This document shows, piece by piece, positions 13,307-27,276 of a stretch of DNA of 27,699 nt. Origin of the DNA: a virus. Taxonomy: Duplodnaviria; Heunggongvirae; Uroviricota; Caudoviricetes. The first letter of the stretch is position 1. Every line of letters starts with the position of its first letter. The stretch lies in IMG/VR virus record IMGVR_UViG_2737471821_000004. One strand, given 5' to 3'. A program made the translations under genes and the position numbers. Below the pieces are notes generated by a model. It did not search any database and was not told where the DNA came from. It worked only from the letters and a program-made list of their open reading frames with translations.

Positions 13307-13759
13307 ATGTTTAGCGGAAAGCCGCTGGATTATCAGGATGAACCGCTGACCAATAACGGATTCTGGCCAGATCTGAATCTGAAGGATTTTCAAGCGCAGC
13401 GGTCACTACCGCCAGATATTGACGCTGACACCATCAGCCAGGCGTTGCTTGCAGCGGTGGCGGAGGTGAATGCGGAACTGGAAAACGTGGAGTCCAGTTG
13501 GATAGCGAAAGGCTACACGCTGGCGGCAGAGGTACCAGGTGTAAAAATGGGCGGACTGAACAGCCTGTGCGCCCAGTATATGAAGGCCGTTTTTGCTAGG
13601 GCAAAAGCGGATCTGCTGGGGGAGTTCGCCACTATCGGGCGGCGCGATACTCATCCGGGACAGGAAAGTATGGAAACCCGAGCGGGGTTACTGGCTGAAG
13701 CATCGGTGGTGATCCGCCGTATGAAAGGGCTGAAACGGGCAACGGTGAAAAAAGTATGA
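13307..13759 (+). CDS. L: Head completion/stabilisation protein (P2 gpL-like)
   Basis: Track ORF 13256..13759 (GTG) trimmed to ATG 13307 with GGGGGA RBS; size (about 150 aa) and position after M as for gpL. Family assignment by position only. Confidence 0.55.
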   Translation: MFSGKPLDYQDEPLTNNGFWPDLNLKDFQAQRSLPPDIDADTISQALLAAVAEVNAELENVESSWIAKGYTLAAEVPGVKMGGLNSLCAQYMKAVFARAKADLLGEFATIGRRDTHPGQESMETRAGLLAEASVVIRRMKGLKRATVKKV

Positions 13760-14262
13760 GCCAGACGCAGATCCAAAGCCTGACCACATTTTTTAAAGAT
13801 AACGTCCCGCCCCGTGCGATGCAGTCATTTGACAGTGTGCTGGATGAGATGAAGTTCATCCCTGCGGCGAAGGATTACGGGCTGGGACAATATCGCCAGG
13901 CGGTTATCCGATATGACGCGGTTCTGAGCTGGGAGCGTTTCCCGTATCGCCTTTGCCCGCCGCAGTTGCTTATGTCCTTACTGGCTGCGTGGCTGGATGA
14001 TGCTGACAGGGAACTACTGGATGAAGTGGGGCTGAGTGAAGCTGAACCTGACTGGGATGTGTCGGTGGAGGATGAGGAAGTGGCCACTGTGGTGCTGACT
14101 GTTCCGATGGTAGAAGAACTGGTGATCAGGCAGGACGAAAACGGGGCTATTCCGTGGCGGGGTGAGCGCTGGTCACTGGTTGAGCCTGAAATCTGGACGG
14201 CACTGACCGCCAGTATTTACAGCGTGGATGAGGCCGGTGCGCCGGTGGGGGATAGCGAATGA
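13756..14262 (+). CDS. Hypothetical virion protein (168 aa; head-tail joining or tail completion candidate)
   Basis: Coupled (overlapping stop/start) to L upstream and to the next gene; acidic; assigned by position between head completion and putative sheath genes. Confidence 0.45.
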   Translation: MSQTQIQSLTTFFKDNVPPRAMQSFDSVLDEMKFIPAAKDYGLGQYRQAVIRYDAVLSWERFPYRLCPPQLLMSLLAAWLDDADRELLDEVGLSEAEPDWDVSVEDEEVATVVLTVPMVEELVIRQDENGAIPWRGERWSLVEPEIWTALTASIYSVDEAGAPVGDSE

Positions 14263-14966
14263 TTGCCGGTGGCGAGCTGAATAAAAAACAGCTGGCCGAA
14301 TTGCGCAAGGCACTGGCCAGCATGGAGCTGCCGCCGAGAAAACGGCAGCGTCTGATCTGGCGTCTGGCCAAATATGGCGTGATTGCTGCGGCAAAGCGGC
14401 ATGTGCGCAATCAGGAATCCCCGGATGGCCAGAAGTGGCCGGGACGTAAGACAAAACGCAAAGGGAAGATGCTGCGCAACCTGCCAAAGCTGCTGCATAT
14501 CCGTGAAATGCCAGAAATTCAGGCTGTGCGGATCTATTTACAGGGCGGTGGATACCGGAACGGGGAAGCGCCGGTACCAGCCGGAACGGTGGGGTACGCG
14601 CAACAAAACGGAATGCGCGTAAAGGTCAGCCGCAGTAATCAGCCACGGAAGGCAGAGGCCGGGAAAATGGCGACGCCTGCCCAGGCCAAAAAATTACGGG
14701 CGCTGGGGTACCGGGTGAAAACCGGTAAGAGATGGAAAAAGCCCACACAGGGCGAAATCACCAAAACGATGCCATACAGCCAGGCGGGGCTGCTGATTCG
14801 AAAACTCAGTAATAAAGCCGTGAAAACCAGCTGGACAGTGGATCTTCCTGCTCGTGTGTTTCTGGGCATGAATGATGATGAATTTGACAAGGCGCTGGCG
14901 CGTCAGCTTCAGGCCATAGGTTTTGGCTGGGATGTTAAGGCGCAGGATATTAAGGGGAAAGCATGA
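14259..14966 (+). CDS. Putative virion morphogenesis / tail completion protein (235 aa, highly basic C-terminal half)
   Basis: Coupled to neighbours; Lys/Arg-rich segment (RKTKRKGKMLRNLPK ... KTGKRWKKPTQ); resembles the virion-morphogenesis class by position and composition only. Confidence 0.4.
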   Translation: MIAGGELNKKQLAELRKALASMELPPRKRQRLIWRLAKYGVIAAAKRHVRNQESPDGQKWPGRKTKRKGKMLRNLPKLLHIREMPEIQAVRIYLQGGGYRNGEAPVPAGTVGYAQQNGMRVKVSRSNQPRKAEAGKMATPAQAKKLRALGYRVKTGKRWKKPTQGEITKTMPYSQAGLLIRKLSNKAVKTSWTVDLPARVFLGMNDDEFDKALARQLQAIGFGWDVKAQDIKGKA

Positions 14967-25056: not shown

Positions 25057-25573
25057 TGGCGAGGCCATCCAGCTGAAAAACATGCGGGTGACCGTTTCAC
25101 AGCAGTTTCAGGATAAAGATCAGTCCGGCCAGACCAGCGCCACAACAAAATCAGAGCAGGGAGCAAAGGGAAAGGAACTGCGGATCAGCGGTGAAATACC
25201 TTTTAAACAGCCTGAAATACTGAAGCGTATTTTTGAGCTGGCCAGTGCTACCGATGCCAGTGGTAATCGTCAGAAGTACCGCGTGGCGCATGAAGTTGCC
25301 CGTGCAGTTAATTTTCGTGAAGCAACGTTCAGCGGAATGCTGGATGCGCCCCAGCAGGACGGGAAAATGTCCTGGCTGGTGACATTCACACTGGCGGAAC
25401 ATATCAGCGTGCAGGAAAAGCGAGAGGCCAGGGCAACAGGTAAGACGACCGCAAAAAAACAGACTGCCGGTAGTGCGGGACAGTCCGGTGGCCAGTCTGC
25501 CGGAGAGGATGAAGAAAAACTGACGTGGTTTGAACGCAAGGTGCTGAAGCCCGTCAATGATGCTTTGGGTTAA
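25028..25573 (+). CDS. Hypothetical protein (181 aa) with a low-complexity Gly/Ser/Gln/Lys-rich linker
   Basis: ATG 25028 overlapping the upstream gene by 29 nt; contains KTTAKKQTAGSAGQSGGQSAGEDEEK; could be a gpU-like tail protein by position (before the D-like gene) but unverified. Confidence 0.45.
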   Translation: MTSIPTLALNGEAIQLKNMRVTVSQQFQDKDQSGQTSATTKSEQGAKGKELRISGEIPFKQPEILKRIFELASATDASGNRQKYRVAHEVARAVNFREATFSGMLDAPQQDGKMSWLVTFTLAEHISVQEKREARATGKTTAKKQTAGSAGQSGGQSAGEDEEKLTWFERKVLKPVNDALG

Positions 25574-25575
25574 TA

Positions 25576-27276
25576 ATGAAACCAGTAAAACGTCTTTACC
25601 TTTCAACGGATGAAATTCACCTGGTGGATGCCAGCCTGGTACTGGAGCTGAACAGCTGCGGTCGGGGCTTCATCACCGCAGAGACAACAACCGATTACAC
25701 CGGAAAACTGGTGCGGCTGGATGTGGGGTATACCGATCTGCTTTTGCGCTGGTTTACGGGGTACGTGGAGCGATCGCAGCCCGCAGAAAACGGTTTTCAG
25801 CGTCTGTTCATTCGTGAACTGGTAGGTGTGTTTGAAAGGATGTGGCCATGTTCGTTTCAGCACCCGACTTTGCGTGAAATTGCGGGCTGGCTGGAAGAAA
25901 ACAGCGGGATCACGGTCAGTGTGCCTGATGCACAGTACAGCGATACCCCTATCCCACATTTTACTCATAACGGTACCGGCTATCAGTTGCTGAACAATCT
26001 GGGCAGGGCGTTCAGTATCCAGGATTACATCTGGTACCAGTTGCCTGATGGTTCGCTTTACGTCGGCGGTGCAGAAAAGTCATTGTTTGCCGGTCGTCCC
26101 GTAGAAATCCCGTCAGAGTTCAGCCAGGGGGCTGCTGGTGGTAACTCTGTGACATTACCAGTGATCCAGACTATGCGGCCAGGGGTGGAGATGAACGGTG
26201 AACGCGTGACTAAAGTTCACCTGACTAATGACACGATGGCGATCACATGGACGCCGAGAAACCGCGCAACGGGTAAACCTTTGCAGAAAACACCGGCGCA
26301 ACGGCAGATTGAAAGCCATTACCCGGAACTGGCATCCGGGCTTCATTTGCCAAAGATGGCCAGAGTCGTGGCGCATTCAGAGCCGGTAAAAAGCGGTAAC
26401 TTTGCCGATCCCTTCCGTCCACGTTACGCCGTGGACGTGCAGCTGCTTGACGCAGACGGAAATCCGGACAATCAGACACCTGTTTATTCAGCGGTGCCGC
26501 TGCCGGTACCAATGGCCGGGAATGATTCGGGTATGTTTCAGTTTCCGCCAGAAGGGACGCTGGTTGAGGTTGCATTCACGGGAGGCAGACCGGATAAACC
26601 CTTTATCAGGCAGACCCTGCCGGATGGTACCAGCCTGCCGGACGTTAAACCCGGTGAGCAATTGCAGCAGCAGCGGGAAGAAGTATCCCAGAGAGTGACG
26701 CAGGCTGGAGACTGGGTAAGGCAGACCGATCAGACCATCAGAGAAACATCAATGGTGCGAACCGTAAAAGCCGATACAGAACAGCGCGAGCTGGTCAGCC
26801 GTGAAACCACGGTGAAAGCCACGGATAAAACCACGGTACTGGGAACCGCCACACTGCTGGCCGGAGCCATCCAGCATGTAAGCGCCGGTGATTATAGCCA
26901 GGCGGTGAAAGGTAACAGGCTGGCCAGCATTGAAGGGAATGACGAAACTGAGATAACCGGGAAACAGTCCACTAAGGTGGCGGGAGCCGTAGATGTGGAT
27001 GTGGGGGGAACCCTGACTGAAAAGATTGCTGCATTACGCAAATCGGTGGCATCGGGCGGTCAGCAGATTATGGGGCCAACCGTCCATATCGGCAGTGAAA
27101 GTGTAAACACGCTGACCATGATGTTGGACACCATTGATTTACTGGCAGAGCTGGCGCAGCAATGTGCGAGTCATTCGCACCCCAGTGTTGGTACGCCAAC
27201 CAATGCCGGAGCGTTTACCCGGACGGCGACAAAGGCCGGACAGACCCGGAGCAAGTACCAGAACATCATTGCCTGA
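25576..27276 (+). CDS. gpD-like tail/baseplate hub protein (late control D family) with a long C-terminal extension (566 aa)
   Basis: N-terminal region (TLREIAGWLEENSGITV ... DYIWYQLPDGSLYVGG) resembles conserved blocks of P2 gpD (ARQIAGEHGLTPDV ... ANGYLFYIHGDTLKF); about 180 aa longer than P2 gpD, with a His cluster (SHSHPSVGTPT) near the C-terminus; last gene before the terminator. Confidence 0.5.
   Translation: MKPVKRLYLSTDEIHLVDASLVLELNSCGRGFITAETTTDYTGKLVRLDVGYTDLLLRWFTGYVERSQPAENGFQRLFIRELVGVFERMWPCSFQHPTLREIAGWLEENSGITVSVPDAQYSDTPIPHFTHNGTGYQLLNNLGRAFSIQDYIWYQLPDGSLYVGGAEKSLFAGRPVEIPSEFSQGAAGGNSVTLPVIQTMRPGVEMNGERVTKVHLTNDTMAITWTPRNRATGKPLQKTPAQRQIESHYPELASGLHLPKMARVVAHSEPVKSGNFADPFRPRYAVDVQLLDADGNPDNQTPVYSAVPLPVPMAGNDSGMFQFPPEGTLVEVAFTGGRPDKPFIRQTLPDGTSLPDVKPGEQLQQQREEVSQRVTQAGDWVRQTDQTIRETSMVRTVKADTEQRELVSRETTVKATDKTTVLGTATLLAGAIQHVSAGDYSQAVKGNRLASIEGNDETEITGKQSTKVAGAVDVDVGGTLTEKIAALRKSVASGGQQIMGPTVHIGSESVNTLTMMLDTIDLLAELAQQCASHSHPSVGTPTNAGAFTRTATKAGQTRSKYQNIIA

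Follow-up and report, generated by a model that had tools for sequence, protein, structure and literature searches.

Organization of the late tail-and-lysis region

The DNA analyzed here (the window) is a 27,699-nt sequence of a Caudoviricetes virus (IMG/VR record IMGVR_UViG_2737471821_000004), and our subject is the part from 13756 to 27276, which an initial annotation had described as a tail module that does not follow the gene order of phage P2. All open reading frames (ORFs) listed in that annotation were present at or near their reported positions, and most of the labels given to them were backed by domain searches. The region almost certainly represents the late tail and lysis genes of an intact temperate myovirus of the HP1 type, an ESSI-2-like prophage at the level of the genus Quadragintavirus (family Peduoviridae), known here from its genes alone and read against published work on its relatives (PMC2771037, PMC8537503, PMC6969025, PMC9230969). 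Window proteins were compared gene by gene with six genomes by tblastn. All genes of the region lie on the + strand.

The region opens with two genes that had been left as unknowns. Domain searches place the first, encoding 168 amino acids (aa; 13756–14262), in the P2 gpR family of tail terminators (Pfam P2_Phage_GpR, E = 9e-23; PHROG 65), and the second, encoding 235 aa (14259–14966), is a gpS-like tail completion protein (PHROG 26, E = 4e-33; 96.6% in an hhalign comparison with S of P2 and 186), with a Pfam Phage_tail_S score of 23.8 bits, slightly below the cut-off. The third gene (14963–16090) encodes a 375-aa protein of the HP1 orf23/DUF2586 family (Pfam DUF2586, E = 5e-135; PHROG 907, 'tail sheath') that is 52% identical to HP1 orf23, 42% to its K139 counterpart, 99% to that of Escherichia phage ESSI2_ev015 (ev015) and 81% to the orthologue in Cronobacter phage ESSI-2, which was earlier modelled as a one-domain sheath (PMC9230969). 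Its stop codon at 16090 is overlapped by the start, at 16087, of a 151-aa gene (16087–16542) of the HP1 orf24 family (Pfam Phage_HP1_Orf24, E = 8e-64), whose product is 59% identical to HP1 orf24, 47% to K139 and 100% to ev015.

Profile alignments of the HP1-type families (6–7 sequences) against two-sequence P2/186 profiles were too shallow, recovering only S and R (56%); with the same two-sequence profiles the sheath–FI, tube–FII and DUF2590–W pairs each scored about 0.2%. We therefore used structure prediction for the sheath and tube candidates. When Protein Data Bank (PDB) sequences were searched with phmmer and with profiles, no meaningful match came up for the families of the sheath, tube, DUF2590, orf34-like or orf33-like proteins, and NCBIfam returned nothing on the tail proteins except sub-threshold VgrG matches on the spike. 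The AlphaFold (AF2) model of the 375-aa protein had a predicted local distance difference test (pLDDT) score of 69.7 and a predicted template modelling (pTM) score of 0.61, and its best 32 Foldseek matches in the PDB were without exception sheath proteins (best 3hxl, E = 1.2e-7, then phage 812, PVC, Lin1278, Milano and diffocin). The 151-aa model (pLDDT 80.6) matched tail-tube and Hcp proteins (phage 812, Sf11, monocin, diffocin, PVC/AFP, pyocin and Hcp; E from 3.5e-4, template modelling (TM) scores 0.45–0.55). These predicted folds, none of them of a non-tail type, support the earlier proposal that the two proteins are sheath and tube.

The tube gene is followed by a lysis cassette (16552–17680; labels from Pfam Phage_holin_3_2, Peptidase_M15_4 and LysC, and PHROG 1152). 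It comprises a holin (16552–16854) 54% identical to P2 Y, an M15 endolysin (16841–17182), Rz (17182–17520) and an overlapping Rz1 lipoprotein gene, whose long ORF runs from 17381 to 17680 and which with the start equivalent to that of the Prokaryotic Genome Annotation Pipeline (PGAP) spans 17492–17680. The endolysin is closer to that of ESSI-2 (92%) than to that of ev015 (87%), a local mosaic patch.

Downstream lies a tail assembly chaperone gene (17667–17924; Pfam Phage_TAC_10) with a slippery heptamer, A AAA AAC, near its end (17915–17921). With 66 open codons, the −1 frame reaches 18115 as an extension ORF (17921–18115; Pfam DUF6890) that overlaps the tape measure ATG at 18112. The heptamer and a −1 ORF of 62–66 codons are kept in ESSI-2, HP1, K139, phiO18P, phi3 and vB_YenM_324 (YenM_324), with the variant A AAA AAG in phi3. 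From this conservation, a programmed −1 frameshift of the lambda G/GT and P2 E/E' type is a well-supported prediction, as the initial annotation had suggested. The tape measure gene itself (18112–20079; Pfam PhageMin_Tail, E = 1.7e-22) encodes a protein 98% identical to that of ev015.

A predicted baseplate wedge set occupies 20058–22166, with a 115-aa DUF2590 protein at the position of gpW, a Baseplate_J protein and a gpI-like protein (Pfam DUF2590, E = 1e-45; Baseplate_J, E = 5e-29; Tail_P2_I, weak; PHROG 1228), all 40–60% identical to HP1/K139. The J-like label given earlier thus agrees with Baseplate_J and the I-like label, weakly, with Tail_P2_I; the W-like label reflects size and position only, no link having been found by hhalign or profiles. 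Next come a tail fibre gene (22177–23754; Pfam Phage_tail_fib, Collar and Phage_fiber) and a tail fibre assembly gene, tfa (23754–24341; Pfam Caudo_TAP), whose product is 44% identical to P2 G at the C-terminus. Two putative baseplate genes, HP1 orf33-like and orf34-like (24295–25573; PHROG 1677 and 1398; Pfam HP1_ORF34, E = 4e-54), encode 253 aa (241 aa with the RefSeq start, 24331–25056) and 181 aa, respectively, without a sequence match in the PDB for either. The block closes with an HP1 orf35-like gene for a 566-aa central spike (25576–27276).

Late gene order is shared with HP1-type phages

Annotated gene tables show that the window follows the order of ev015, ESSI-2 and YenM_324 throughout, including an ogr-like gene after the portal gene Q. 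In ESSI2_ev015, ESSI2_ev129 and ESSI2_ev040 (NC_049395, NC_049394 and NC_049393, respectively), order is identical from cII to the 566-aa spike, and most ev015 proteins are 94–100% identical to those of the window, although ev015 has two additional early genes. ESSI-2 (Seongnamvirus; NC_047854) has the same order, with structural proteins 56–92% identical, but its fibre and early genes have diverged. From Q/P rightward, the window is also colinear with HP1, K139, phiO18P and phi3, the common late order being head completion, tail terminator, tail completion, sheath, tube, lysis, chaperone, tape measure, DUF2590, J-like, I-like, fibre, fibre chaperone and three baseplate genes.

For the classical 'HP1-like viruses', HP1 (Hpunavirus) and K139 (Longwoodvirus), both annotated tables and tblastn coordinates extend this colinearity from Q/P to orf33–35, and the A AAA AAC frameshift site recurs in both phages. 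The HP1-type signature families orf23 (DUF2586), orf24, DUF2590, orf34 and orf35 are all present, and every tail gene matches HP1 and/or K139. However, protein identity to these phages is only 25–60%, the early genes of the window are nearer those of 186, its lysis type (P2 Y-like holin with M15 peptidase) differs from theirs, and so do host and cargo genes.

P2 (Peduovirus) and 186 (Eganvirus) belong to the same family and share with the window the six capsid and packaging genes in order, an Ogr/Delta activator, an E/E'-type chaperone frameshift and, by hidden Markov model (HMM) searches, the R, S, J and I families; in 186 the early layout, int-cI-apl-cII-...-A, is also that of the window. 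Their tail genes are arranged in O, V and F operons, however, whereas those of the window form one block in a different order. The operon order of P2 (X-lysis-R-S, V-W-J-I-H-G and FI-FII-E-T-U-D-ogr) was absent, as the initial annotation had noted, as were FI/FII-type sheath and tube sequences; the order differs from that of 186 too, and no similarity at the BLAST level was detected for FI, FII, U, D, V, W, X or H. The only tail genes with a tblastn match in P2/186 were the holin, the C-terminus of tfa and, weakly, the tape measure. Moreover, P2 has ogr after D, whereas the ogr-like gene here follows Q, and P2 encodes gpV (211 aa) and gpD (387 aa) separately, in contrast to the 566-aa multi-module spike of the window.

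While the departure from P2 order is real, it is not unusual. The initial annotation had itself named what would overturn its mosaic reading, namely that some lineage already described has its genes in this complete order, and ESSI2_ev015, ESSI2_ev040, ESSI2_ev129, ESSI-2 and YenM_324 form such a lineage. Labels in public records hide the relationship: PGAP names in Escherichia coli 1919D3 are 'DUF2586 domain-containing protein' for the sheath, 'phage protein' for the tube and 'hypothetical protein' for the spike, and in YenM_324 the sheath gene (14771–15910) is labelled 'topoisomerase' and the orf34 homologue (24791–25336) 'adenine glycosylase'. Owing to this sparse or odd annotation, prophages of the lineage look stranger than they are.

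Nearest genomes, prevalence and integration site

By megablast against phage genomes, the closest relatives were the Escherichia phages ESSI2_ev015, ESSI2_ev129 and ESSI2_ev040, at 95–96% nucleotide identity, with alignments spanning 99% of 13756–27276 and 81–82% of 1–13756. Phage ev239 was 88% identical, and ESSI-2 76–79% identical over only 28–58% of the sequence. RefSeq places the ESSI2_ev phages and ESSI-2 in the Peduoviridae, as Quadragintavirus and Seongnamvirus. The ICTV genus threshold is a genome-wide nucleotide identity of at least about 70% to genus members, and the identity to ev015, ev129 and ev040 lies well within it. At the species threshold (at least 95% over the full genome), the aligned parts are about 95–96% identical, while int-cI-apl (~2.2 kb) and other patches were left unaligned by megablast.

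The ESSI2_ev phages are temperate coliphages obtained from infant gut viromes, and ESSI-2 has been cited as a myovirus (PMC6969025). An identical prophage (100%) was found in E. coli 1919D3 and, among the matches listed, in six more complete genomes. Related prophages occurred in 56 of 5,426 complete E. coli genomes, 26 of which had coverage of at least 80% of window positions 2700–27699. This prevalence, about 1% of complete E. coli genomes, is above that of a 2020 survey, in which a single genome among 10,943 from E. coli carried an ESSI-2-like prophage (PMC6969025).

The prophage (~28.9 kb) sits between mntS and mntR in E. coli. An 11-bp attL core, TATAATATAGC read on the − strand, lies at 199–209, with a second copy beside mntR, beyond the window; no exact repeats of at least 12 nt were found as att sites, and the 11-bp core came from a narrower search. 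When the two flanks were joined, the rebuilt attB (311 nt) was contiguous at 100% in 5,392 of the 5,426 complete genomes. This use of an 11-bp core between mntR and mntS differs from ev015, in which attP carries a tRNA 3' end. ATAGC/GCTAT repeats abound at the mntR–mntS site, which may overlap sites that regulate mntS.

Beyond the spike gene, cargo genes lie before attR (27307–27699 and past the right end of the window). One encodes a secreted-looking 110-aa protein (PHROG 13843, function unknown there); another, beyond the window (E. coli 1919D3 locus 3308–4966 covers this end), is a serine acetyltransferase gene also present in ev015. These could be lysogenic-conversion genes.

Early genes and late control

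The left end of the window carries a 186-type switch, in which leftward int-cI faces rightward apl-cII. The genes encode a tyrosine integrase (297–1337, − strand; Pfam Int_N and Phage_integrase; 62% identical to 186 Int), a CI repressor of the 186/HP1 type (1339–1974, or 1339–1920 with the PGAP start, − strand; Pfam Phage_CI_repr and Phage_CI_C; 43% to 186 CI, 70% to ev015), an Apl/Cox-like excisionase-repressor (2023–2277, + strand; PHROG 575, E = 2.5e-27) and a CII-like activator (2308–2811, + strand; Pfam Phage_CP76, E = 1.8e-46; 44% to 186 CII). The 186-type layout proposed earlier therefore stands, with 43–62% identity to 186 Int, CI and CII; an attL-int-cI-cox/apl-cII module of the 186 type has also been described for the group of K139 (PMC8537503). 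A perfect CTGT-N8-ACAG palindrome, CTGTATTGCCGTACAG, at 2018–2033 in the cI/apl switch region overlaps the apl start and may serve as an operator or be a site of the LexA type. Relative to ev015, which elsewhere is 95–100% identical, the int/cI/apl module has been swapped (Int 57%, CI 70% and Apl 68% at the amino acid level).

Between CII and replication protein A are several small genes and a Dam-type methylase gene. Protein A (4981–7002, + strand) is a rolling-circle nickase (Pfam Phage_GPA, E = 6e-105), 46% identical to 186 A and 32–34% to HP1/K139. Directly after gene A, in the same place as the SOS operon of 186, are a LexA-box-like sequence, TACTGTATGTATATCCAGTT, at 7080–7099 and, just downstream, a 68-aa ORF (7122–7328; PHROG 698, function unknown there), whose residues 4–41 share 32% identity with the N-terminus of the 186 Tum antirepressor. 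The ORF may encode an SOS-inducible antirepressor.

The early proteins as a group lean toward 186. Int is 62% identical to that of 186 versus 51% for HP1 and 40% for K139, CI 43% versus 31% and 27%, CII 44% versus no match in HP1 and 24% in K139, and A 46% versus 32% and 34%, while the late proteins are closer to HP1/K139. One explanation is an ancient, lineage-level exchange that combined an HP1-type late module with a 186-like enterobacterial early and replication module, the joint lying between A and ogr/Q. The LexA-box-like site and Tum-like ORF after A would fit such an event, as would the P2/186-like holin and tfa, and the Rep of phiO18P has been reported to be similar to that of PsP3 (PMC2771037). 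However, the evidence consists of pairwise identities, early genes evolve fast and may follow host clade, and a cI/cII-type switch is common to HP1, K139 and 186 in any case (PMC2771037). We regard the exchange as a serious possibility, though somewhat short of an even chance; it is compatible with the identification of the region as an HP1-type late module and, even if true, would characterize the described lineage as a whole and not the window. The lean toward 186 possibly reflects either an old early/late exchange or host-linked divergence across the entire ESSI-2 lineage.

The last gene of the P-Q operon, as its layout suggests, encodes an Ogr/Delta-type zinc-finger late activator (7302–7625, − strand; Pfam Ogr_Delta, E = 9e-20), the start of which overlaps the stop of Q, confirming that an ogr-like gene lies downstream of Q. 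This position is common to ev015, ESSI-2, YenM_324 and K139, in which the ogr homologue adjoins Q between the portal and rep genes (PMC8537503), and the protein is 57% identical to K139 orf13. A consensus promoter scan gave fewer promoter-like sites than shuffled sequence, and the sole plausible terminator from the scan (7287–7273) lies after the ogr-like gene.

From these genes a working model can be drawn. The Ogr-type protein, expressed from the last part of the P-Q transcript, would switch on two divergent late units from the intergenic region at 10456–10580, and the rightward unit would run almost gaplessly from O to the 566-aa gene. The R-like and S-like proteins would serve in tail termination and completion, and the 375-aa contractile sheath would polymerize around a tube of the 151-aa protein, the length of which would be set by the tape measure, assisted by the chaperone together with the product of its frameshift. 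Apart from the activation step, the model follows the usual assembly route of contractile tails. The baseplate would consist of DUF2590, J-like and I-like wedges, the orf33/34-like proteins and a central spike with a gp5-type beta-helix and an HxH apex.

Capsid genes and the supposed joint at L

Portal gene Q (7622–8683) and large terminase gene P (8680–10455), both on the − strand and recognized by Pfam, are 44–51% identical to HP1/K139 versus 33–42% to P2/186. The genes for scaffold O, major capsid protein N, small terminase M and head completion protein L (10581–13759, + strand; Pfam GPO, Phage_cap_P2, Phage_term_smal and Phage_GPL) are likewise nearer HP1/K139, and over all capsid and packaging proteins, compared gene by gene, identity is 34–51% to HP1/K139 versus 27–42% to P2/186. 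Scaffold O (10581–11420) is only 76% identical to ev015, with neighbours at 94–100%, a local mosaic patch.

The initial annotation had read the element as a mosaic, with a 186-type early module and P2-type capsid genes joined to a tail module out of P2 order, a reading that would make it a novel recombinant of a P2/186-type head module and a foreign, non-P2 tail just after L. In favour of this reading, the order after L is indeed unlike that of P2, and few P2 proteins have a counterpart: tblastn matches in the window came only from Q, P, O, N, M, L, Y, G (C-terminus), T (weakly), Int and A, with no match at E 0.01 for X, R, S, V, W, J, I, H, FI, FII, U, D or ogr. However, this is the pattern described for HP1-like phages, in which six capsid genes are common with P2 and in the same order while the tail genes 'show generally no similarity', and the head/tail pattern has been described since 1996–2009 (PMC2771037). 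The junction between L and the R-like gene and the order downstream of it also occur in ev015, ESSI-2, YenM_324, HP1, K139, phiO18P and phi3, phages of six host genera. Identity to ev015 is flat at 98–100% across the boundary, and no break in guanine-cytosine (GC) content was found at 13756. Since the capsid genes are nearer HP1/K139, capsid and tail are one HP1-type late module without a junction at L. A head-tail mosaic as a recent event is thereby refuted, and we give very little credence to any version of a novel head-tail mosaic. The real mosaic features are small, namely the swapped int/cI/apl module with its new attachment site, the divergent scaffold gene and the P2-like holin and tfa segments.

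That the element is a defective remnant, or a tailocin-like element with a working tail only, is most improbable: nothing specific points to it beyond its chromosomal location and the few genes named by PGAP, whereas the genes for head, packaging, tail, lysis, replication and integration are all intact and contiguous, both att cores are intact, and phages 95–96% identical were recovered from viromes as coliphages, which grow on E. coli (PMC6969025).

Several observations do count against reading the region as the late module of an intact, Quadragintavirus-level HP1-type phage. The P2-type activator site, TGT-N12-ACA, does not occur in the divergent P/O late-promoter intergenic region, so that Ogr-like late control is proposed from homology only. 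The sheath model is of only moderate confidence (pLDDT 69.7, TM scores 0.37–0.43) and fits at the level of the fold. The final ~1.4 kb of the prophage falls beyond the window, and int/cI/apl differs from the named Quadragintavirus species, indicating a different strain. We conclude that the prophage, whose layout is the usual one of the HP1 type, is an isolate-level variant within a coliphage genus already described.

The central spike and its N-terminal module

The 566-aa protein (PHROG 2258, E = 5e-279) had been labelled D-like, which holds at best in part: its first ~230 residues are at most weakly gpD-like, but residues ~290–566 are a spike of the gp5/gpV type. Its modules are an N-terminal part (~1–230), an oligonucleotide/oligosaccharide-binding (OB) fold (~300–350), a gp5-type beta-helix (~410–510) and an HxH apex (H533/H535). 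By phmmer, residues 412–507 match the beta-helix of T4 gp5 (E = 2e-10), and Pfam Gp5_C scored above its cut-off; VgrG/gp5 profiles also matched. For the OB fold, Phage_base_V reached 22.9 bits, slightly below its 23.8-bit cut-off, with a signal in four of six family members. Both H533 and H535 are invariant in the family, and one member has a GpV Apex match. The OB fold, trimeric beta-helix and HxH apex that define a central spike are thus all recognizable, and on these profile matches the protein is assigned as the central spike, the predicted functional counterpart of P2 gpV.

Many stand-alone proteins of 225–245 aa in other phage or prophage genomes match only the N-terminal module (~226 residues, within 25576–26265; 348 representatives at E ≤ 0.001 in an exhaustive search), a family with no significant Pfam or PDB match. 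Against gpD, hhalign gave 0.7%, 3.3% and 15.9% as alignments deepened, a weak signal in a constant register (residues 40–147 against D 64–175). The deepest gpD profile comprised ten divergent homologues from a phage collection, a first attempt having given only relatives 76–100% identical. The module has only ~230 aa compared with 387 aa for gpD. In phi3, the sole annotated product at the equivalent position is a 323-aa baseplate protein with a Gp5 domain, no check for a separate gene of the N-terminal module having been made upstream of it.

To our knowledge, no HP1-type baseplate has been solved structurally. One speculative arrangement, which we consider unlikely on present evidence though worth stating, is a VgrG-like fused hub-spike, in which a minimal N-terminal hub of the gpD/gp27 type would be joined to a gp5/gpV-type spike and the orf33/orf34-like proteins would replace gpU/gpX. 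If true, the centre of a contractile-tail baseplate would here be built in a distinct and compact way, a feature that would belong to the whole HP1/ESSI-2 lineage and not to the window.

The arrangement of the region as such is already known, being the standard organization in that branch of the P2 family to which HP1, K139 and ESSI-2 belong, and with near-identical coliphage genomes already in RefSeq its discovery value is small. One practical point is that the prophage is a variant of this lineage with a different integrase/immunity module, located in the mntR–mntS intergenic region.

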